From: Ignavibacteriota bacterium
Lineage (GTDB): Bacteria; Bacteroidota; Ignavibacteria; UBA10030; SZUA-254
Reading direction: 5' to 3'
Assembly (NCBI GenBank): GCA_963727845.1
Contig: CAVSHI010000003.1
Location: forward strand, 937,913-1,001,912
DNA: 64,000 nt
This document shows positions 9,106 to 23,847 of this stretch, piece by piece. Each line of letters starts with the position of its first letter. Position 1 is the first letter of the stretch. The notes below the pieces were generated by a model that saw only the letters and a program-made list of their open reading frames with translations, did no database searches and was not told the origin of the DNA. The translations under genes and the position numbers were made by a program.

Positions 9106-9169
9106 ACCCGGCTCCACGCCGGACCACGGGATAGCCGTCCATTTCACATTATGACGTAGTTGCTGCCTC

Positions 9170-9186
9170 GCGATTCAGCGAATCGC
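9170..9186. repeat. REP palindrome copy 1 (GCGATTCAGCGAATCGC + ACTACAG tail)
   Basis: Perfect 17-nt palindrome; one of 5 same-orientation copies clustered around the RAYT gene. Confidence 0.8.
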
Positions 9187-9244
9187 ACTACAGAATTCTC
9201 GGCGCTTCACGCCTCCCAACCGCTTCAATTCACGCTGCCCATTC

Positions 9245-9261
9245 GCGATTCAGCGAATCGC
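9245..9261. repeat. REP palindrome copy 2 (GCGATTCAGCGAATCGC + GTTACAG tail)
   Basis: Identical palindrome; the tail contains the RAYT stop codon (CTGTAA on the minus strand). Confidence 0.8.
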
Positions 9262-9262
9262 G

Positions 9263-9928
9263 TTACAGGGGAACGTTGCAGTAACTCCATTTCCATTTTG
9301 TCCACTCTTGGACCATTCCAGCTTTAACCGGATTGTTGAGAACGTATTCGATAATCCGTCCGAGATCCCCGTCGTTGCGAACGACATGGTCATAACTTTC
9401 GTGCTGCCAAAAGATGCCGGAACGATACAGTATTTTGTTGGCTTCGTGCGCCGTGAACTTCTTCAAGGATCCAATGATGTCGGTGACAATGTAGCGCGAG
9501 ACGCCGTCTCGCGCAGGTAGCGATTCAGCGAATCGCTCTACGCTGAAAACCATGTGGACATGATTGGGCATAATACAATATGCAAGAAGTTCGTACGCCA
9601 TCTGATCTCTATATTTGATGGCAGCGGACACAAGTCCGGCGATGCGGTCATCACGCAGCCAGAATTGACCTTCAGCCGACGTATCCAAGAACCGATCAAA
9701 ATTTTCGAAATACTGTTTACGCGCTTCCTCGCGCGCCAGATTCCTTTCACTATCGTCGCGCATGTGAGCGATTTGCCTTTCCAGACCCAGGTGTTCTTTC
9801 TTCAGTTGCAATACGACATAATCAGGAAGTGATCCTGCGAGCCGGAATGTCACAAAGAATGTTCCCCGTAATGGCTGGTAGTGGGGTAATCGACAACGGT
9901 AATATATTAATTCGTCTCCCATGGTCAA
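9263..9928 (-). mobile_element. REP-associated tyrosine transposase (RAYT, IS200/IS605 TnpA-like Y1 HuH transposase)
   Basis: HuH motif (MPNHVHMVF) and C-terminal catalytic-Tyr region (IFWQHESYDHVVRNDGD…YVLNNPVKAGMV) matching the RAYT signature W-Q-x-x-(F/Y)-(W/Y)-D-H-x-I-R…NP-x-K-A-G. Flanked by REP copies. Confidence 0.8.
9519..9537. repeat. REP palindrome copy 3 (AGCGATTCAGCGAATCGCT), located inside the RAYT coding sequence
   Basis: Encodes …SVERFAESLP… in the RAYT frame. Preceded by a second 10-bp palindrome GCGCGAGACG-c-CGTCTCGCGC at 9495-9515. Confidence 0.75.
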
Positions 9929-9946
9929 ATGATGTGTCGCTCCCCT

Positions 9947-9965
9947 GCGATTCGGCGAATCGCAT
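9947..9965. repeat. REP palindrome copy 4 (TGCGATTCGGCGAATCGCA, centre CGG variant)
   Basis: Same palindrome with A->G at the centre; tail TTACGATG. Confidence 0.75.
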
Positions 9966-9999
9966 TACGATGTTCTCCCTCAGTCCATTTTGCTTATTC

Positions 10000-10016
10000 G
10001 CGATTCGGCGAATCGC
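10000..10016. repeat. REP palindrome copy 5 (GCGATTCGGCGAATCGC + GCTACAG tail)
   Basis: The tail overlaps the thyX stop codon (CTGTAG on the minus strand). Confidence 0.75.
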
Positions 10017-10017
10017 G

Positions 10018-11004
10018 CTACAGGCTGAGCTTGCTCAATTTCTCCAAAAACTCATCTGCCTCGCGCTCGCCAAGGCCTTTCAACTCAAGATATTCCTTTG
10101 TGATTGATGCAGCCTCGATATGTTCTTTCAAGACACACATTTCTAAACGCGAGAAATGTTCCGCCTTGAGGTTGTAGTCTTCGAATGCTTCCCACGCGAT
10201 CGGAGTAACCTTCCTTGTAATTTCCGCCATCGCTTCAGCATAAACGCGGATTTCGTACTGCGCGTGGGGATCCATCCGCAGGGCGAGAAAATGAAAAAGG
10301 TTGTGCAGATCGATTTTCCAGTACCACTCGGTATAGAGCGACAGCGGAAGGTGTACTCTCGCGAGCTCGCGGGCAATGTCGTTATCCAGCATCTGTTCGT
10401 ATTCCGCATACGTTTCGCGCTGGGCCGTGGTGAGTATTTCCAGCACTCTCTCTCGTAGCGCCGCCGGAACCTCGTCCACGGCGCGCCCCTGTCTGTTGCC
10501 TTTGCTCTGGTAGTGAATCGCGTCGTCTTCCGGGACGTAAAATTCGTCCTTCATCACTGAGTAGCGTCCCGAGTACTCATTCACGTTTGCCGTCCGGTGA
10601 CGGATCCACTGCCGCGCAACGAATATGGGAAGCTTCACGTGGAATTTAAGCTCCACCATCTCAAACGGTGTCGTGTGTTGATGACGCATGAGATAGCGGA
10701 TGAGTCCGCGGTCTTCATTAACTGATTTTGTTCCCTTCCCGTACGAGACGCGTGCCGCCTGCACGATCGATTCATCCCCACCCATATAATCGATGAGGCG
10801 TACGAAGCCGGCATTCAGGCACTTGAATTCCTTATCGAGCAGTTCGTTTGCCTGTGGATTTATGATATGGGCCATGCTTGTCAGTACCTGAAATAATTTT
10901 TCCGCGATTAACTGTTCAATGTACTGAATCGCAGAGAGAAAATCCATTTCAAAAATTTCTTCGGACCTTCGCGCCAAGCCTGCCACGGCAGCACATCGCT
11001 TCAA
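10018..11004 (-). CDS. thyX: flavin-dependent thymidylate synthase ThyX
   Basis: ThyX signature RHRxxxxxxxSxRY present (RHRTANVNEYSGRYS). 328-aa ORF; the true start may be an internal Met (e.g. MDFLSAIQ…). Confidence 0.85.
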   Translation of the reverse strand: MKRCAAVAGLARRSEEIFEMDFLSAIQYIEQLIAEKLFQVLTSMAHIINPQANELLDKEFKCLNAGFVRLIDYMGGDESIVQAARVSYGKGTKSVNEDRGLIRYLMRHQHTTPFEMVELKFHVKLPIFVARQWIRHRTANVNEYSGRYSVMKDEFYVPEDDAIHYQSKGNRQGRAVDEVPAALRERVLEILTTAQRETYAEYEQMLDNDIARELARVHLPLSLYTEWYWKIDLHNLFHFLALRMDPHAQYEIRVYAEAMAEITRKVTPIAWEAFEDYNLKAEHFSRLEMCVLKEHIEAASITKEYLELKGLGEREADEFLEKLSKLSL

Positions 11005-16688: not shown

Positions 16689-16903
16689 TTAACCTTTCTT
16701 GATGCTGCCACAACGAAAACTGCCTATCCTGCACAAGCCTAGCGGTAACCCCCCAATAATATAATGATGGGAACGTTGTGGTGCAGCATGTTGCCTACTG
16801 TCTGCACCGAAACAAGCCAACCAGTCTGAAAACAGGTTCTTCAGAAAATGCGGCCAGCGTGAGTGATGTTCCTTCACGCCTGAGATTCCTCTTAGCGAAG
16901 ACC

Positions 16904-17062
16904 TCATATATGTACAGCAATCTTCAGGACAACATTTCGCGGTTCTTCCCAGCTTGCTCCAGTAGTGTTTGCACCTTTGATGAGATGTGTGTGATCTAAT
17001 AAATTGGTAACATATTTGGACGGTTCGAAAGTGCTCCCTCCCTCAACCTCAAGAAATGTTTT
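16904..17062 (-). pseudogene. orphan 3'-terminal fragment of a TonB-dependent receptor paralogue
   Basis: Translation …GGSTFEPSKYVTNLLDHTHLIKGANTTGASWEEPRNVVLKIAVHI* is ~85% identical to the C-terminus of the TBDR at 17813..20302; the DNA is ~87% identical over ~190 bp (16873-17062 vs 17787-17975). Confidence 0.7.
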
Positions 17063-17708
17063 TTCCCCCTTTTTCCAGACATTCAGCGCCTTCCCGGTAA
17101 GAAAAATAAGCAATCACAACTGAGCCGACAGCATCAACATATCCAATGTTCGTAATCTGATATATCAGGCTCGCAATCAATAGTGTCAGGGACATTTGGA
17201 TGCAGACTTTTGTACAGTTGCCGTCTGCAATGATCGGTCGAGAATTCAGATCCCTCCCAACACGAAGTTTCGCCACCATCAAACCCATCATCATGAGTAT
17301 TGATAGAAGAGAGATGATGAGGCCTGGAACGGTTGTCTCTGGCTTATGATTGGTCACCGCTGCCACGATTGCACTGAACGCCAATGTCAAAGACAGAACA
17401 TAGAATGAAACACCAGTGACCTTCAAGGCGAATTGTTCAAAGTCATCTCTCACCACGTTATTGTTGTTTCGAATTCTCGTTATCAGGTGAGCAATTCCAA
17501 CTGCAGAGGCTGTTTCAATAAGGCTATCAATGCCGAAACCGAACAGCGTCAGGGTTTGGTCGGCATATCCAAAATAGAGCGAAAATATGGCTTCAAGCAA
17601 ACATGAAATGATCGTCAAAATACTCAAGCCGAAAGCAATCTTGTAGAGCTGTCTTTTCTCCATAGTACGGTGTCCTCTAATAATAACTCGCCCTCTGTTC
17701 GTTGCCAA
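17049..17708 (-). CDS. cation-diffusion-facilitator-like membrane protein (TMD only, degenerate metal-site motifs), AT-rich
   Basis: ~6 TM helices. CDF-like FGxxxDSLxE (FGFGIDSLIETASAV) and xIADGNCT in place of the DxxxH/HxxxD sites. GC visibly lower than surroundings. Probable start at MEKRQLYK (17663). Confidence 0.45.
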   Translation of the reverse strand: MATNRGRVIIRGHRTMEKRQLYKIAFGLSILTIISCLLEAIFSLYFGYADQTLTLFGFGIDSLIETASAVGIAHLITRIRNNNNVVRDDFEQFALKVTGVSFYVLSLTLAFSAIVAAVTNHKPETTVPGLIISLLSILMMMGLMVAKLRVGRDLNSRPIIADGNCTKVCIQMSLTLLIASLIYQITNIGYVDAVGSVVIAYFSYREGAECLEKGGKNIS

Positions 17709-17812
17709 ATGTCTGTATGATGGCTGAAAGCAGGTAAAGGTTGTACGGAATCACCTTCGCACCAGGAATCCGAGCTGCTCCCTCAAGCGTGAGATTCCTC
17801 TTCGCGAAGATT

Positions 17813-20302
17813 TCATATATGCAAGGCAATCTTCAAGACAACATTCCGCGGTTCTTCCCAGCTCGCTCCTGTGGTGTAAGCACCTTTGATTAGATGTATG
17901 TGATCCAATAGATTGGTAACATATATGGACGGTTCGAAAGAACTTCCTCCCTCGAGATGGAAGGTATGCCCTGCGCTAAAATTGAATATCCAATATGGAG
18001 TTGTATGTGCTGCCTGATTGAAATCGAACAATCCTGTTTTGTAGATGGAAACGTCCTCCGGGTGGCCGTTAGAAAGTCCGGATCCATACGTCACCTCGGG
18101 ATTGATATACCAATCTTGGGGCTGGTAGTTGATGGCAGCCACAATCGAAAGCCTTTGATCATGATCAAGGTCGGTTGCCGATCCGTCAGTGCTCGGGGGC
18201 AAGAAGCCCCCTGTCAGAGGACCCGAACCAACAGCATGAATGATTGAAGAGTTCAGGTGGCCCGAGAATGGGGTTGTCGGATCGCTATAGGAGAGTGAAC
18301 ACTCGATCCCGGTTGTCTTTACAGTGGCAATATTGAACGGGGTTTTGATTGCAGTATTACCGATTTGTGCATCATCCGTAAATGGACTGGCATACTTGAA
18401 GAAGGCCGCCGTTTTGAACCGGAGATTAACTGGAAAACTGTGGGTGTAGACGGCCTCATAGTAGGAGTCGCGCTCTGGAAATGTTGCTGTGACTGAGTTG
18501 CTTACACGTTGAGCTATCGATCTAAGTGCTTCAATATTTGTAGGCATGAAGAGCCTGCCGTAATACAGGTACGCTGAACTGTATTCATCTATGAGGAAAT
18601 TCCACCGGATTCTGGGGCTGACCTGTCGCTGGAGCGGAACCACTGGAGCGATATGTTGATCATAGCGGGTACCCAGATCGAACGAGGTCCAGTCGAGAGG
18701 ATGCCATTTAGTCTCCACGAAAATCCCACAATCTGAACCAGTGAAGTTGCTGAGGATTGATGGACCGGGGTTTTGCAAAGAATCACGAGATGTGAAATTC
18801 TCGGCCCCGCTGGTGCTACTAAGGTTGAATCCAACCTTATACATGAACTGGTGAGAAAGCCTCTCGTCGAACGTCGAGCGGATACCGAGCGTGGTAAAAC
18901 TTCTGTCCTCGAAGAGATTATAGTTTGTCGAATCTCCGGCAAATTGGAAGTTCGGTGGATCAATATCGCCAGGAGTATAGATCAAGTTACCTTCGCGCGT
19001 ATACGCTCCCATGAACAGGTTTTCCTCTTGACCGGGTTGTGAATTCATTTCACGGAAATAAGAAATTGCTTGCAATGAATTAGTTGTTGCCTGCACATCG
19101 GAAGTAATTTGCACCGTGGGATCGTAAGGAACTTGTGTGGAGGTTCTTCCAAAACTCAGATTTGCCGTTATGTAATCGATATCGCTAAGGATATAATCGA
19201 ACTTGCCGTAGAGAAAATAATCGAACCCATGGTCGTGAAACAGATTTGGCACGGGGGTGTCTATGCGACGATCTGTTTCCTGACGCGAGGCGGATGCATA
19301 ATATCCCAATTTGCCAAGGTGATCACTAATCGACAAAGCCTCGCCGTCTGAATTAAGTGCTCTGAAAGGGCCGACGCGACCGCCGAGTGTGTCACCTGGG
19401 ATAGCCGATGACGGGCCGGATGCGACTTCGGTTCCAGCCGAAAGGGGTTTGGTTCCATTGAACACAAGATAACTCCCCACATATGTCGAAGCATCGAGAT
19501 GAAATGTTCCTGTCGGGACACGGTTATTCAGGTCGATGATGGCAGACATCTGGCCACCGTACTCAGCGGGGAATCCTCCCGTGATGAAAGTTGCACGGTC
19601 TATGACTTTCGGATCGACAACTTCATTTAATCCCCCAAATACGCCCAGCGGAACCGGAATACCATCGATATAATACGTGAATTCTCCGTGTTGTCCCCGG
19701 ATATGGACTTCACTTGTAGGCGCCCGTGCTGCCCCCGTGAGGTTTTGCTGAATCAAGTTTGTCATTTGAGCCGTCGGCGGTGGGTGATAGGTTTCTGATT
19801 CAAAGGTTTGATTGCCAGTACTGACATTGATATTCGAAACGCCAGGTTCACGATGGCCGACCACTTCAACGCCCTGAAGTTGACTATCCTTTGGCCGGAG
19901 GTTAATTGTGCAGGTTGTGTGATCCTGATTTATCAGAACGGAATCCGTGTAAATCTCATAGCCGACGAACCAGGCGGTCAGCGTGTAAAAGCCTGGTTGT
20001 ATATTGCGAATCCAAACTTGTCCTGCCGTATTGGTTGCATCCTCAGCAACGACTTTTTTCCCATGCTGCAATACCACTCGTGCAAGGCCGATGGGGACTT
20101 TTTCATTAGCATCATAAACTGATATCCTGAAATCTATGCCCTCTTTGCCTTGTGGAGTGGAAATTGTCCGCTCTGCATGTGCGAAAGAGGTAATCCACAT
20201 AAACAGACATAATAGCATCATAGAGGAAATTCTTTGATGTACCATCTCTATAATTTGTCGCATAAATGCCATAGATCGTGTTCGCCTTTTTTCGAACATC
20301 AT
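17813..20302 (-). CDS. TonB-dependent outer-membrane receptor (CarboxypepD_reg-like N-domain + plug + beta-barrel)
   Basis: 829 aa. Signal peptide, then carboxypeptidase-regulatory-like segment (FRISVYDANEKVPIGLARVVL…GFYTLTAWFVGYEIY), plug-like region and long barrel. Start overlaps the stop of the upstream gene (ATGA at 20299-20302). Confidence 0.75.
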   Translation of the reverse strand: MMFEKRRTRSMAFMRQIIEMVHQRISSMMLLCLFMWITSFAHAERTISTPQGKEGIDFRISVYDANEKVPIGLARVVLQHGKKVVAEDATNTAGQVWIRNIQPGFYTLTAWFVGYEIYTDSVLINQDHTTCTINLRPKDSQLQGVEVVGHREPGVSNINVSTGNQTFESETYHPPPTAQMTNLIQQNLTGAARAPTSEVHIRGQHGEFTYYIDGIPVPLGVFGGLNEVVDPKVIDRATFITGGFPAEYGGQMSAIIDLNNRVPTGTFHLDASTYVGSYLVFNGTKPLSAGTEVASGPSSAIPGDTLGGRVGPFRALNSDGEALSISDHLGKLGYYASASRQETDRRIDTPVPNLFHDHGFDYFLYGKFDYILSDIDYITANLSFGRTSTQVPYDPTVQITSDVQATTNSLQAISYFREMNSQPGQEENLFMGAYTREGNLIYTPGDIDPPNFQFAGDSTNYNLFEDRSFTTLGIRSTFDERLSHQFMYKVGFNLSSTSGAENFTSRDSLQNPGPSILSNFTGSDCGIFVETKWHPLDWTSFDLGTRYDQHIAPVVPLQRQVSPRIRWNFLIDEYSSAYLYYGRLFMPTNIEALRSIAQRVSNSVTATFPERDSYYEAVYTHSFPVNLRFKTAAFFKYASPFTDDAQIGNTAIKTPFNIATVKTTGIECSLSYSDPTTPFSGHLNSSIIHAVGSGPLTGGFLPPSTDGSATDLDHDQRLSIVAAINYQPQDWYINPEVTYGSGLSNGHPEDVSIYKTGLFDFNQAAHTTPYWIFNFSAGHTFHLEGGSSFEPSIYVTNLLDHIHLIKGAYTTGASWEEPRNVVLKIALHI

Positions 20303-20817
20303 TGGAAGCCAAACAGTATGCCCGCAGATGCTCCCAAAGACTGCGAGGATCTCTCGCCAAACGTGGAGCTATAACCTGGCTCTATATACCAGCCCACGTT
20401 CGTTTTTGGCCAGCACATGAAGTCGAGAACGATTTCCATATCATAGGAGGTTGTACGATCGTTCCCACCAAATTTGTGAACCACTTCAGGCCCAAGGCCG
20501 AACATAAACTCCGCAGTGTGAGATAGTCGATATGGTTTCTTGAACAGAAGGTCAATTCCAACTTCGGTGTGATCCGAAGTTTGGAGTGCGGTTACGCCGC
20601 TTTCCAACTCGAGCCAATTTTCTATCGGTGTTACCTCGACCGCAAACGTGCCGCCGAATTGAAATGAAGATTCATTAAGATCCCATTCTCCTGCCGGTCC
20701 AATCTCGAGAACCAGACCATGATCCTTGTCGACATCCTCTTGAGCGAGGACAGAGCACGCGGAGCATTGAAGAACGCCAACGACGAGAATCATCCACAAT
20801 CTTACTTTACATCGCAT
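20299..20817 (-). CDS. small secreted hypothetical protein, first gene of the TBDR operon
   Basis: 172 aa with a signal peptide (MILVVGVLQCSACSVLAQ). Preceded by the DtxR/MntR-type operator and promoter. Confidence 0.6.
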   Translation of the reverse strand: MRCKVRLWMILVVGVLQCSACSVLAQEDVDKDHGLVLEIGPAGEWDLNESSFQFGGTFAVEVTPIENWLELESGVTALQTSDHTEVGIDLLFKKPYRLSHTAEFMFGLGPEVVHKFGGNDRTTSYDMEIVLDFMCWPKTNVGWYIEPGYSSTFGERSSQSLGASAGILFGFQ

Positions 20818-20844
20818 AGGTCTATTACAACGTTTTCATCATAT

Positions 20845-20887
20845 TTTAGGTATACCTAAATATAAGTTTTGGTGCACTGAAATGCAA
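20845..20887 (-). promoter_or_regulatory. sigma70-like promoter (-35 TTGCAT at 20882-20887, 17-nt spacer, -10 TATATT at 20859-20864) overlapped by perfect 16-bp palindrome TTTAGGTATACCTAAA (20845-20860)
   Basis: Palindrome resembles DtxR/MntR-family operators. The whole ~45-nt module is near-identical to the one upstream of mntR at 23738-23780. Confidence 0.6.
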
Positions 20888-21181
20888 GTCGGCTCGGACA
20901 TGGCCGCGCACACCGGGTGATCATTCGTCAATTGAACGAGGGGAAGAATTAATAGATCGGCAAGCTACGCCGGGAGATCAAATATTCACAAAGAATCGAC
21001 CCAAGAAGGGGAGCAGTCCAATTTTCATGATTCCTAAAATAACAATTGGATCAGTTTTACATCTAGGCACAGATAAAGACTCTGATCGCGATGATCTGAG
21101 AACAGAGTGGTGCCCAAATCAAGACCCGCGCCGGAGCAAACGCGAGATCCGGGTCTCCATGTCAACCAATGTGGAAGTCTT

Positions 21182-21598
21182 CTACTTCGCTTTGAGAAGA
21201 AGCACGGGCACGCTTATGTGGTGCCGGACTTTTGTGACCGTTGTCCCGAGAAACAGGTCGGCTACCAAACGGTGGCCGTGTGTGCTCATCGCTAGGAGAT
21301 CGCATCCCTCTTTCTGAATCCATTTGACAATTTCCTGGGCCGGTTCGCCGTAAGCCAATTCTGCTTCCGCCGGAATATTCTCTGAGCGGAATTCTGATTT
21401 CACTTTTTCCAAGTACGCCTTGTCCTCAACTACCTCCGGGCTGACGGCGTCGCGACCGAATATGCGAGCCGCCCAGCCATCGGCGACATGCAACAACACC
21501 ACCCGGCTTTGCATGAATCGGGCGAGTTGTTTGACGTGTTCGATGATCGCCCTGTCGGTGGGAGTGCCGTCCAGGGTTACAAGAATCGTTTTATACAT
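21182..21598 (-). CDS. universal stress protein (UspA family)
   Basis: 138-aa Usp fold (MYKTILVTLDGTP…VLLHV…GCDLLAMSTHGH…VPVLLL); last gene of the mntR-mntH-usp cluster. Confidence 0.75.
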   Translation of the reverse strand: MYKTILVTLDGTPTDRAIIEHVKQLARFMQSRVVLLHVADGWAARIFGRDAVSPEVVEDKAYLEKVKSEFRSENIPAEAELAYGEPAQEIVKWIQKEGCDLLAMSTHGHRLVADLFLGTTVTKVRHHISVPVLLLKAK

Positions 21599-21626
21599 GC
21601 CTGTTTCCTGTTTGCTGAGAAAAACC

Positions 21627-23045
21627 TCATCCGCCGATGATGACCCGCCACGCTTCCTTCAGTGACTCTGGAAGACTGTAGAGATCCATGACAGTTATGA
21701 GCAGGGCGCTTCCCCATCCCAATATAATCAGAAACCAGCCACTTGTCCACTTTCCCATTATCTTACGGGATGAAGCGAAATACAACAGGGGAAACATCGC
21801 AAAAGGCAATATGAGGCAGAGAATGACCTGACTGAGATTGACCAAATCCGTCACGCTGCCGCCTCCGCGGACACTGATGATCAGAATTGCCGGAACCACC
21901 GCAAGCGTCCGCGAGATCATCCTTCGCAGCCACGGACGGATACGCCAATTCATGAAGCCTTCCATCACGACCTGTCCGGCCAGCGTGCCGGTAATCGTGC
22001 TGCTTTGTCCACTGGCAAGCAATGCCACAGCAAAGAGCGTGCTCGCGAAGGTAGTACCGAGCAGCGGGGCCAATGTCAGGTGAGCTATACGGATCCAATC
22101 GCTGTCGGGGCTGAACATCACCACCTGCCCCCCCGCCACCGTTACACTATTCTTGCCGTAAAAAACCATCGCCGCCAGCACGAGGATCGCGGCGTTGACC
22201 ACGAACGCAACGGCCAGCGCGACGGAGGAATCAATGGTATTGAACCGAATCGCGTTACGAATCGAACGGTCATCGCGCTGGAACTTCCGCGTCTGAACAA
22301 GAGCAGAGTGAAGGAACAGGTTATGAGGCATGACGGTGGCGCCGATCATCCCGATAGCTATTACGAGCATGCCTGTTTGCCGAAAGCTGGGTTGAAGCAG
22401 CGCCTGACCCATCTCCAGAAAACTTGGTTGTGTCTGCGGGAGGATGAATATCTCGATGGCATAGCAGACGCCGATCGTAGCCACGAACACCGTGACAACG
22501 GCTTCAATCATCCGCATGCCAAATCCTTGCAAAGCAAGCAAGAGCAGAACATCGGCTGCGGTGATAACGATCGCCCAGGCAATGGGAATATGAAACAAGA
22601 GATTCAAAGCAACCGCACTGCCCAGCGCTTCGGCCAGATCCGTCGCACCAATGGCGATTTCCATAGAGATCCAGTTGGGCCAGCGGCTCCATTTCGGAAG
22701 ATAATCGCGGCAACACTGGGCAAGATCCTTCCCGGTGGCTACGCCCAAACGGGCTGAGATCACCTGAAGGATGACTGCCATGAAGCTTGCCAGTGCGATA
22801 ACCCACAGCAGGGCATATTTGAACTGTGCTCCCCCGGTGAGATCCGTTCCCCAATTGCCGGGATCCATGTAACCAACACTCACCAGCACTGCCGGCCCCA
22901 CAAACGCACGCCAGTTTTGCCAGAAACCGGCCTCGTTGTTCGGCACCGCCACCGTGTTGTGCATCCCCTCCAATGAAGGATGAGCGCGTGATTCCGGATT
23001 CTCAGGCGTCATGTTCTCTTCCGGCGACAATGGTTTTTTAAACAA
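21627..23045 (-). CDS. mntH: NRAMP-family divalent metal (Mn2+/Fe2+) transporter MntH
   Basis: NRAMP signature (GYMDPGNWGTDLTGGAQFKY) and ~11 TM helices. Overlaps the mntR stop by 8 nt. Confidence 0.85.
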   Translation of the reverse strand: MFKKPLSPEENMTPENPESRAHPSLEGMHNTVAVPNNEAGFWQNWRAFVGPAVLVSVGYMDPGNWGTDLTGGAQFKYALLWVIALASFMAVILQVISARLGVATGKDLAQCCRDYLPKWSRWPNWISMEIAIGATDLAEALGSAVALNLLFHIPIAWAIVITAADVLLLLALQGFGMRMIEAVVTVFVATIGVCYAIEIFILPQTQPSFLEMGQALLQPSFRQTGMLVIAIGMIGATVMPHNLFLHSALVQTRKFQRDDRSIRNAIRFNTIDSSVALAVAFVVNAAILVLAAMVFYGKNSVTVAGGQVVMFSPDSDWIRIAHLTLAPLLGTTFASTLFAVALLASGQSSTITGTLAGQVVMEGFMNWRIRPWLRRMISRTLAVVPAILIISVRGGGSVTDLVNLSQVILCLILPFAMFPLLYFASSRKIMGKWTSGWFLIILGWGSALLITVMDLYSLPESLKEAWRVIIGG

Positions 23046-23718
23046 CCTCTATAAAAATACTCTTTGCAAGCAGGGGGCTCAGCGGGATTTCTTTTCTCCC
23101 CACAATGACGATGACGGAGCCGTCAAACTTTATTTTCTGCTTGACCCGGACTTTCTTGTTCAGACCCAGGCCGAGCTTCGTGAGAAGCTGCAGGGCTTCC
23201 TGGCTTTCATCGCTGACGCGCACGATGATGCCGACGTCGTGAGCATCGCACTGGGAGAGCCGCCGATACGTGATTTTCTTGAGCACTCCATCGGCTGTCG
23301 GGATAGGATCTCCGTGGGGATCGACCTTGGGGTGGCCGAGTGCTTTATCGAGCCTGATCTCCATTTCATCAGACGTCACATGTTCGAGAAGCTCGGCCTC
23401 GTCATGAATTTCGTCCCACGTGTAGCAGAGAAATTTAACAAGAAACATTTCCCACAGGCGGTGCCGCCGCACCATTTTGAGCGCCACACGCCGTCCGGCT
23501 TCCGTGAGCGTTACACCCTGGTATGGCTCGTAATTGATAAGCTGTTTTTCCGAGAGTTTCTTGACCATGTCGGTGACGGAGCCGTCGCCGATCTTCAGGT
23601 GCTTTGCCAGGACTGATGTCGGGACGACCTGTTCGCCCGCCTTCGAAGTGTGTTCTGCAGCAAGGCGAATCTGTAGATGGTAAATGCTTTTGAGGTAATC
23701 TTCCGTTGATTGGTTCAT
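23038..23718 (-). CDS. mntR: DtxR/MntR-family metal-dependent transcriptional repressor with C-terminal FeoA/SH3-like domain
   Basis: N-terminal wHTH (MNQSTEDYLKSIYHLQ…SVLAKHLKIGDGSVTDMVKKL), metal-binding/dimerisation region (…HRLWEMFL…DEIHDEAELLEH…) and C-terminal FeoA-like domain. Confidence 0.8.
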   Translation of the reverse strand: MNQSTEDYLKSIYHLQIRLAAEHTSKAGEQVVPTSVLAKHLKIGDGSVTDMVKKLSEKQLINYEPYQGVTLTEAGRRVALKMVRRHRLWEMFLVKFLCYTWDEIHDEAELLEHVTSDEMEIRLDKALGHPKVDPHGDPIPTADGVLKKITYRRLSQCDAHDVGIIVRVSDESQEALQLLTKLGLGLNKKVRVKQKIKFDGSVIVIVGRKEIPLSPLLAKSIFIEVV

Positions 23719-23737
23719 TTTAGCGCATGTAATCTAT

Positions 23738-23780
23738 TTTAGGCATGCCTAAATATAGGTTTTGGTGTACGAAAATGCAA
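23738..23780 (-). promoter_or_regulatory. mntR promoter (-10 TATATT 23752-23757, -35 TTGCAT 23775-23780) overlapped by perfect 16-bp palindrome TTTAGGCATGCCTAAA (23738-23753)
   Basis: Same architecture and spacing as the module at 20845-20887; probable autoregulatory operator. Confidence 0.6.
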
Positions 23781-23847
23781 GTTGGCAGGGGACTGGGCCC
23801 TTACTGATGGGGGACTGGAGAAGGTTTTGCAACGTCCGGTGCTATGG

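Follow-up and report, generated by a model that had tools for sequence, protein, structure and literature searches.

A duplicated promoter-operator module, a predicted manganese sensor and an outer-membrane gene pair in an Ignavibacteriota bacterium

A 64,000-nucleotide (nt) stretch of DNA from an Ignavibacteriota bacterium (GenBank assembly GCA_963727845.1, contig CAVSHI010000003.1, positions 937,913 to 1,001,912; this whole stretch is called the window below) carries two near-identical copies of a short promoter-operator module. One copy stands upstream of mntR, which encodes a DtxR-family metalloregulator, and the other upstream of two genes encoding a predicted small outer-membrane barrel and a TonB-dependent-receptor-like protein. 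This arrangement raises the question of whether a single metal sensor governs both units, and of how the second copy came to stand where it does. We put at roughly three in four the probability that MntR, the DtxR-family manganese sensor encoded next to them, uses the palindromes within the two modules as its operators, and that two units are controlled through them, a reading built on comparative sequence analysis.

A promoter-operator module in two copies and its predicted regulator

Both modules are read on the minus strand. In module A (20842-20889), which lies 5' of the gene for a 172-amino acid (aa) barrel protein, the hexamer TTGCAT (20887-20882) is followed after a 17-nt spacer by TATATT (20864-20859) and by operator A (20845-20860, strandless), a perfect 16-bp palindrome, TTTAGGTATACCTAAA, that contains TTAGGNNNNCCTAA. 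Module B (23735-23782), which lies 5' of mntR, repeats this layout with TTGCAT at 23780-23775, the same 17-nt spacing, TATATT at 23757-23752 and operator B (23738-23753, strandless), likewise a perfect 16-bp palindrome, TTTAGGCATGCCTAAA, that contains TTAGGNNNNCCTAA and is backed by a phylogenetic footprint (see below). Together the modules define a 48-nt block in which 42 of 48 positions are identical and beyond which the flanks cannot be aligned. A sequence-only reading of this DNA had proposed such a duplication, and it is borne out, with the palindromes in place and TTGCAT-17 nt-TATATT in each copy. The distance from operator A to the ATG of the 172-aa gene at 20817 is 27 nt, that from operator B to the mntR ATG at 23718 is 19 nt, and both palindromes sit just 5' of minus-strand genes in the correct orientation.

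When the window was searched with TTTAGGYATRCCTAAA, allowing up to three mismatches, operators A and B were the only two matches, against 0.23 expected, and one of 100 shuffles of the window reached two matches. The exact sequence TTAGGNNNNCCTAA occurs at 20846-20859 and 23739-23752 and at no other site in the 64-kb window. This 14-bp sequence is the target of one IdeR dimer and has been proposed as a redefined IdeR/DtxR consensus on the basis of Saccharopolyspora erythraea IdeR (PMC8464063), and the likeness to DtxR/IdeR boxes that had been pointed out earlier holds as an exact match to this one-dimer site. Compared with the 19-bp two-dimer iron box TTAGGTTAGSCTAACCTAA, the best score at either copy is 13/19; unrelated coding positions in the window score 13-14/19, so this value is at background level and the two-dimer box is absent.

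In both modules, the final two T's of TATATT are also the first two bases of the palindrome in the minus-strand reading. Bacteria of the FCB group, here represented by Bacteroidota and Ignavibacteria, use a -33/-7 type of promoter, and a second reading of TATATTTAG is as an approximate -7 element. Whether the promoter is read as sigma-70-type or as -33/-7-type, the operator overlaps the predicted downstream promoter element.

The gene behind module B, mntR (23038-23718, minus strand), encodes a 226-aa protein that was assigned to the DtxR family by Pfam, NCBIfam and PDB matches and by alignment to DtxR. Its N-terminal winged helix-turn-helix domain (PF01325, E = 1.4e-11) and its dimerisation/metal domain (PF02742, E = 8e-32) are both above the gathering score, a FeoA/SH3-like domain (PF04023, E = 1.4e-11) covers residues 153-224, and the protein aligns over its full length with ScaR and SloR. 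These three Pfam domains confirm the earlier description of a DtxR-family regulator with a FeoA-like domain. Members of the DtxR/IdeR/ScaR/DR2539 subgroup have a C-terminal SH3-like/FeoA domain, which the MntR subgroup of B. subtilis and E. coli lacks. The best NCBIfam model, that of the Thermus-type MntR, gave 193 bits and thus stayed below the 350-bit equivalog cutoff, so that the regulator is to be regarded as a member of the family and not as the orthologue of a characterised protein. Its closest solved relatives in the PDB, 5zr4 (E = 1e-46), DR2539 (8pvt), ScaR and SloR, are Mn-responsive; 5zr4, deposited under the name 'metal-dependent transcriptional regulator', is an entry that we take to be M. 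tuberculosis MntR.

In the alignment to DtxR, residues D6, E108, E111 and H112 of the regulator occupy the positions of DtxR M10, C102, E105 and H106, and the ancillary-site residues H85, E89 and H104 are kept; the range of this alignment agrees with the PDB matches. According to published ligand lists, Mn-responsive members of the DtxR family are recognisable by oxygen or nitrogen ligands where others have Met and Cys (PMC4805248), and the regulator has this Mn-type primary site, with Asp/Glu/Glu/His and neither Met10 nor Cys102. The recognition-helix region GDGSVTDMVKKL is conserved within the regulator clade. The adjacent regulator is most likely a DtxR-family manganese sensor, with manganese, and possibly iron too, as its predicted effector.

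The two genes that follow are mntH (21627-23045, minus strand), which encodes an NRAMP-type predicted Mn2+ importer (Pfam Nramp, E = 5.9e-121; NCBIfam NF001923), and usp (21182-21598, minus strand), which encodes a member of the universal stress protein family (Pfam Usp, E = 9e-24). MntH passes the curated model NF001923 with 506 bits against a cutoff of 430 bits. The mntR stop codon overlaps the mntH start codon, the gap between mntH and usp is 28 nt, and the mntR-mntH-usp triad is found in more than 25 Bacteroidota loci, with the order mntH-usp-mntR in Flavobacterium; the claim that the regulator shares an operon with mntH and a Usp gene stood up on all three counts. A terminator-like hairpin 3' of usp (21146-21125) is a consensus match only, at the background frequency for the region. 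Across Bacteroidota, usp is a steady partner of mntH in many loci (L003-L062) and in both gene orders; a role of Usp in manganese homeostasis is suggested by such gene context.

Operator conservation and the origin of module A

For the footprint, 857 kb from 80 loci with a gene for a homologue of the regulator were examined, and the exact pattern TTTAG-N6-CTAAA occurs in them 60 times against 1.3-1.8 expected. This core lies within 200 nt 5' of the first mnt-operon gene in 46 of the 59 Bacteroidota/Ignavibacteria (FCB) loci, where its median distance to the start codon is 50 nt, and is present in only 2 of the 18 loci of other phyla. As the search pattern prescribes the outer arms, these have no bearing on the choice between protein contacts and an RNA stem; position 6, which is unconstrained, is mostly A in Bacteroidota sites as opposed to G in the window. 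The central 4-6 nt of orthologous operators vary freely and are often non-self-complementary (TTTAGACAAAACTAAA is an example), and a variable, non-complementary centre fits contacts by a protein dimer rather than an RNA stem. From these sequences, the operator consensus of the wider clade reads TTTAG(A/G)-N4-(C/T)CTAAA, with TTAGG-N4-CCTAA as the form found in the window. The operator combines a promoter location in both copies with conservation 5' of orthologous mnt operons, and the view that the palindrome behaves as the regulator's own predicted operator is supported by the comparison. Literature searches, with curated regulon databases outside their scope, returned no published TTTAG-N6-CTAAA motif or MntR box for Bacteroidota or Ignavibacteria. 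The consensus applies to a clade of MntR proteins with an SH3 domain that spans Bacteroidota, Ignavibacteria and related bacteria, and would permit regulon prediction in thousands of genomes.

As to which of the two modules came first, regulators 65-75% identical to that of the window (L001, L163, L164 and L165) are preceded by the same architecture, TTGCAT or TTTGC/T and then CAAAAC.TATATTTAGGnnnnCCTAAA, which argues that module B represents the original promoter through which regulators of this type control their own expression. The closest relatives of the locus (L081, L161, L162, L167, L168 and L169) share mntH at 73-93% identity, usp at 88-91%, the small protein at 75-81% and the receptor at 74-90%. 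In four of them (L081, L161, L162 and L168), the genes for MntR, MntH, Usp, the small protein and the receptor follow one another in a row behind one operator, which lies 5' of mntR, and the gap between usp and the small gene, 74-141 nt long, is operator-free. The same gap is likewise operator-free in L167, the contig of which starts within mntH, and in L169 a second regulator gene is inserted in it. In the window, the gap measures 364 nt, contains module A and cannot be aligned with the gaps of the relatives.

Outside the palindrome, module A is identical to module B at 28 of 34 positions, compared with at most 24 of 34 for orthologous promoters, and the six differences between A and B fall in the spacer and at two central Y/R positions, which are variable among orthologues too. 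Given this likeness to module B and the elements that it has retained, module A would be an intragenomic copy with everything needed for function, and the comparison points to a lineage-specific copy of the mntR promoter-operator. On this account, the locus is a clean natural case of regulon growth via promoter-operator duplication, for which the relatives that have no copy are usable as controls.

The locus is also mosaic. Its mntH, usp, small-protein and receptor genes are 73-93% identical to those of L081, L161, L167, L168 and L169. The regulator of the close relatives is about 50% identical and stands behind another promoter type (CTTGACTTTTGC..TTCTAAA.ATTAT) with the same operator arms, and L164, 65-78% identical throughout and more distant, yet has the regulator and promoter type of the window. 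It seems that close relatives have swapped cassettes of regulator and promoter, with the operator core kept.

The outer-membrane gene pair and its regulatory links

The gene directly behind module A (20299-20817, minus strand) encodes a secreted protein of 172 aa that belongs to an unannotated family; its signal peptide, an AlphaFold2 model and Foldseek searches lead to the prediction of an 8-stranded outer-membrane beta-barrel. The protein has no Pfam or NCBIfam match, and all of its homologues are named 'hypothetical'. Its signal peptide, read in the translation, ends VLA/QE. The AlphaFold2 model, based on a 29-sequence alignment, has a predicted local distance difference test (pLDDT) score of 87.6 and consists of the signal helix and eight long antiparallel strands; the top solved Foldseek matches are OmpX, the transmembrane domain of OmpA, NspA, Ail and OmpW, with E-values of 2.5e-6 to 1e-4 and a probability of 1.00 (OmpX, OmpA, NspA and Ail) at a sequence identity of 8-16%. 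The model thus indicates that the protein is most likely a small outer-membrane barrel, a membership that applies at the level of the fold only. The family has many invariant acidic residues, and its profile retrieved 1089 representative clusters (50% identity) at E <= 1e-3 in 1.84 billion proteins. Six members (P0275, P0283, P0287, P0313, P0336 and P0349) are about 280 aa long and have extra bacterial SH3 domains (PF06347, PF08239).

The second gene of the pair (17813-20302, minus strand) encodes an 829-aa (or 819-aa) protein with a CarboxypepD_reg domain and a divergent TonB-dependent-receptor-like part, as assigned from Pfam, homologues and hhalign. The stop of the small gene and the start of this one overlap, and the small-barrel and 829-aa genes are therefore likely to form one operon. 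Many of its homologues (63-83% identity) carry PF00593 and are named TonB-dependent receptor, some bear the Joint Genome Institute (JGI) label 'outer membrane receptor protein involved in Fe transport', and alignment of the family with bona fide Plug+barrel receptors by hhalign gave a probability of 95% and E = 3.5e-8 over 620 columns. The CxxC plug motif is absent from the 829-aa protein, which has ARAPTSE where Bacteroidota box-associated receptors have NCxxCNT.

Outside the window, the two genes recur beside DtxR-family regulators. The pair is in line with mntR-mntH-usp in L081, L161, L162 and L168, and in L167 too, the contig of which lacks the regulator; L164 has the receptor only. In L169 (5198-6000), another DtxR-family regulator is present beside the first and represents a third type (227 aa, 38-40% identical to the others); its gene is divergent from the small-barrel/receptor pair and separated from it by a 120-nt intergenic region with a perfect TTAGATTAATCTAA palindrome. 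In L083, a DtxR paralogue comparable to that of L169 is followed by the small-protein gene, with the receptor divergent, and no clear operator could be identified at this locus. The arrangements that tie the pair to DtxR-family sensors are independent of one another and number at least four, namely in line, through a duplicated operator, through a dedicated paralogous regulator and in a divergent arrangement.

Bona fide TonB-dependent receptors, too, are preceded by the TTTAG-N6-CTAAA box at several loci, namely L004, L006, L024, L028, L036, L060 and L065, and such box-preceded receptor loci of Bacteroidota come from Flavobacterium, Pedobacter, Daejeonella, Winogradskyella and Maribacter. These box-associated receptors share an invariant NCxxCNTGD plug motif, and in L036 (3132-5871) and L060 (3092-5977) a WCxxC thioredoxin-fold protein is encoded 3' of the receptor. 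The module of L036 and L060 looks like the receptor plus thioredoxin-fold module of S. maltophilia (PMC13217887), placed here under a DtxR-type MntR; Bacteroidota are not listed in that paper.

Taken together, the barrel and the CarboxypepD_reg receptor families may form an unrecognised outer-membrane route for Mn2+ or another divalent metal in Kryptoniota/Ignavibacteria-like bacteria of the FCB group, a suggestion that we offer tentatively and hold to be possible rather than probable. If it is true, regulated outer-membrane manganese uptake would be widespread in those phyla. The locus links two uncharacterised outer-membrane protein families to metal homeostasis. Outer-membrane passage of Mn2+ is known in few cases, which are MnoP, MnoT and the S. 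maltophilia receptor described in 2026.

Two further features of the window lie in or beyond the end of the receptor gene. A 178-nt direct repeat (16867-17044 and 17776-17953, 86-91% identical), through which the receptor gene's 3' end is present twice, brackets a short gene (17049-17708) for a cation diffusion facilitator (CDF)-like protein of about 205-219 aa (Cation_efflux, E = 1e-8); typical CDF transporters have about 300 aa. A separate promoter-like site, with no operator, belongs to the CDF-like gene. In relatives, the receptor gene is followed instead by DUF190 and a resistance-nodulation-division (RND) efflux system (L161, L162, L168 and L169) or by an amidase gene (L164), which suggests a cassette insertion. 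An Rfam scan of the whole window (1-64000) found no family at gathering score, and hence no yybP-ykoY manganese riboswitch, including near the CDF-like gene. Elsewhere in the window, five copies of a 26-nt palindromic repeat (TCGCGATTCAGCGAATCGC..TACAG) lie between 9168 and 10023, around and inside a 221-aa open reading frame (ORF; 9263-9928, minus strand) in which a Y1 transposase domain of the IS200-like kind was recognised (E = 2e-5); in its layout this resembles a repetitive extragenic palindromic (REP) element with its REP-associated tyrosine transposase (RAYT).

Proposed control, alternative explanations and known systems

In the mechanism that we propose, sufficient cytoplasmic Mn2+ (possibly Fe2+) would lead one metal-loaded MntR dimer to occupy each TTAGG-N4-CCTAA site and, as the site overlaps the downstream promoter element and the probable transcription start, RNA polymerase would be blocked. 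Two units would be shut off in this way, the autoregulated mntR-mntH-usp operon and the operon for the 8-stranded barrel and the TonB-dependent-receptor-like protein. Upon metal scarcity, both units would be derepressed, and the outer- and inner-membrane uptake steps would be switched on together. Module A would give the outer-membrane pair a metal-controlled promoter of its own; in close relatives the pair trails usp without its own operator.

Several points weigh against this picture of MntR controlling both units. A sigma-70 promoter scan of the window called neither module, and TTGCAT, one of the hexamers that were read by eye, is weak in that it agrees with the sigma-70 -35 consensus at 3/6 positions; of the -35 element put forward in the sequence-only reading, the sequence and spacing are present, whereas its match to the consensus is partial and the promoter scanner passed over it. 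Promoter rules are different in the FCB group, to which the host belongs, and this makes it uncertain how exactly the promoter is to be read. The closest relatives do not have operator A, and its function is thus left without comparative support of its own. Manganese-only specificity may be tempered, by analogy, by the Fe2+ response of relatives: for DR2539 either Mn(II) or Fe(II) serves as activator, PgMntR of Porphyromonas gingivalis binds Mn and Fe, with Fe2+ destabilising the PgMntR-DNA complex (PMC4805248), and the title of a paper on T. denticola TroR calls the protein a manganese- and iron-dependent repressor. The 829-aa protein is treated as divergent TonB-dependent-receptor-like, an assignment by remote homology: its Plug match is sub-threshold (E = 0.002, 19 bits against a cutoff of 23.9), Pfam finds no PF00593 barrel domain in the protein itself, the receptor family profile has no match among PDB sequences, and the AlphaFold2 model is poor (pLDDT 46.6), with long beta strands predicted. 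Among the relatives of the small barrel in soil metagenomes, most have neither the box nor a receptor neighbour; the 109 ORFs that neighbour these soil genes include four Cation_efflux, three to four receptor-like, two MerR and one Nramp gene. These neighbours are heterogeneous, the excess of metal-related genes is slight, and the small-barrel family as a whole is untied to the operator. Finally, the sequences with their positions, the domains, the ligand residues, the conservation of the operator between species and the repeated linkage of the genes are observations, and from them we infer MntR binding, the effector metal, the direction of repression and transport by the outer-membrane pair.

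The same architecture could also answer to iron, or to iron and manganese, in which case the regulator would sense both metals and the uptake of iron or iron chelates would be the task of the receptor operon. The operator does equal the one-dimer consensus of IdeR/DtxR, the metals accepted by DR2539 and PgMntR and named in the title on TroR include iron, and several receptor homologues carry the JGI label for Fe transport. However, a primary site of D/E/E/H with no Met or Cys sulfur ligand is the Mn-selective pattern (PMC4805248), the co-regulated inner-membrane transporter passes the MntH model, and the cluster contains no Fur-type or siderophore genes. We consider an iron signal unlikely on this balance, and manganese sensing by MntR remains our preferred reading. 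A different explanation concerns module A alone, which might be a recent neutral duplication or recombination scar, with the outer-membrane genes expressed by read-through or from another promoter; the module may have arrived with an insertion of about 250 nt between usp and the small gene. Close relatives do without module A and have gaps of 74-141 nt, A and B resemble each other more closely than they resemble orthologous promoters, as would be expected of a young copy, and the 178-nt direct repeat around the CDF-like gene is a trace of other rearrangements nearby. Yet both hexamers persist in module A at a spacing of exactly 17 nt, the palindrome in it is perfect, the six differences from B are confined to the spacer and to central Y/R positions that vary in orthologous operators, module A is correctly oriented at 27 nt from a start codon, and the genes downstream of it are tied to DtxR-family regulators by three other arrangements elsewhere. 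This makes a functionless scar decidedly improbable.

It was also considered that the palindromes might be RNA hairpins at transcript 5' ends, or members of a dispersed repeat of the REP or miniature inverted-repeat transposable element (MITE) type. The copy-A leader folds better than shuffled sequences (z = -2.7), and the window does harbour a REP-like palindromic repeat family at 9168-10023. The fold of the copy-B leader, on the other hand, is insignificant (z = -1.6) and pairs differently, the centres of orthologous operators vary freely and are often not self-complementary, the palindrome has only two copies in the window, both at promoters, and the site is conserved 5' of the same gene family across phyla. 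With leader folding both weak and inconsistent between the copies, the RNA-hairpin reading was rejected, and we regard hairpins and dispersed repeats together as a very remote prospect compared with operators bound by MntR.

Autoregulated mntR-mntH operons with palindromic operators are textbook, and the regulatory design of this locus is standard for DtxR-family manganese repressors, as seen for DR2539 on mntH, M. tuberculosis MntR, ScaR/SloR and PgMntR. With IdeR/DtxR operators it has in common the exact 14-bp consensus, its palindromic form, its location in promoters and a DtxR-family protein as predicted binder; it differs from them in the absence of the 19-bp two-dimer box, in manganese as the predicted effector and in a host that belongs to the FCB group and is not actinobacterial. 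DR2539 and 5zr4, the closest solved relatives, have the same three-domain build as the regulator of the window. In DR2539, as in this regulator, a Lys replaces the Glu11 ligand of B. subtilis MntR, and a His98-equivalent goes with it (PMC3327659). DR2539 represses an NRAMP gene via a promoter pseudo-palindrome of 21 bp, whereas the sites in the window are perfect palindromes of 16 bp, and outer-membrane genes, of which the window has a pair, are unreported for the regulons of DR2539 and 5zr4 in the literature compared.

A parallel within Bacteroidota is PgMntR, a DtxR-family manganese regulator that is autoregulated with its manganese transporter and shares H85, E89, H104, E111, H112, D132 and H134 with the regulator of the window in the same numbering (PMC4805248). 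It differs in having two FeoA domains, Cys108 where the regulator of the window has Glu108, and FeoB2 rather than an NRAMP protein as its transporter; its operator is unmapped in that paper (PMC4805248). MntR of S. maltophilia regulates mntH, mntP and genes for a TonB-dependent receptor along with a thioredoxin-fold protein of the periplasm (PMC13217887, 2026), and the likeness to the window lies in a manganese repressor box 5' of both an inner-membrane importer and a receptor operon beside mntR and mntH. In contrast to the window, S. maltophilia has a 25-bp MntR box, a receptor with a CQNC plug and a thioredoxin-fold partner (PMC13217887). The receptor of the window is without CxxC and falls outside the CxxC-plug class, and its partner is an 8-stranded barrel, so that it would belong to a different family than the S. 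maltophilia receptor; MnoT of B. thailandensis is a further manganese-linked receptor. Set beside these systems, what rises above the routine here is the operator consensus that spans phyla and the link of two uncharacterised outer-membrane families to metal uptake.

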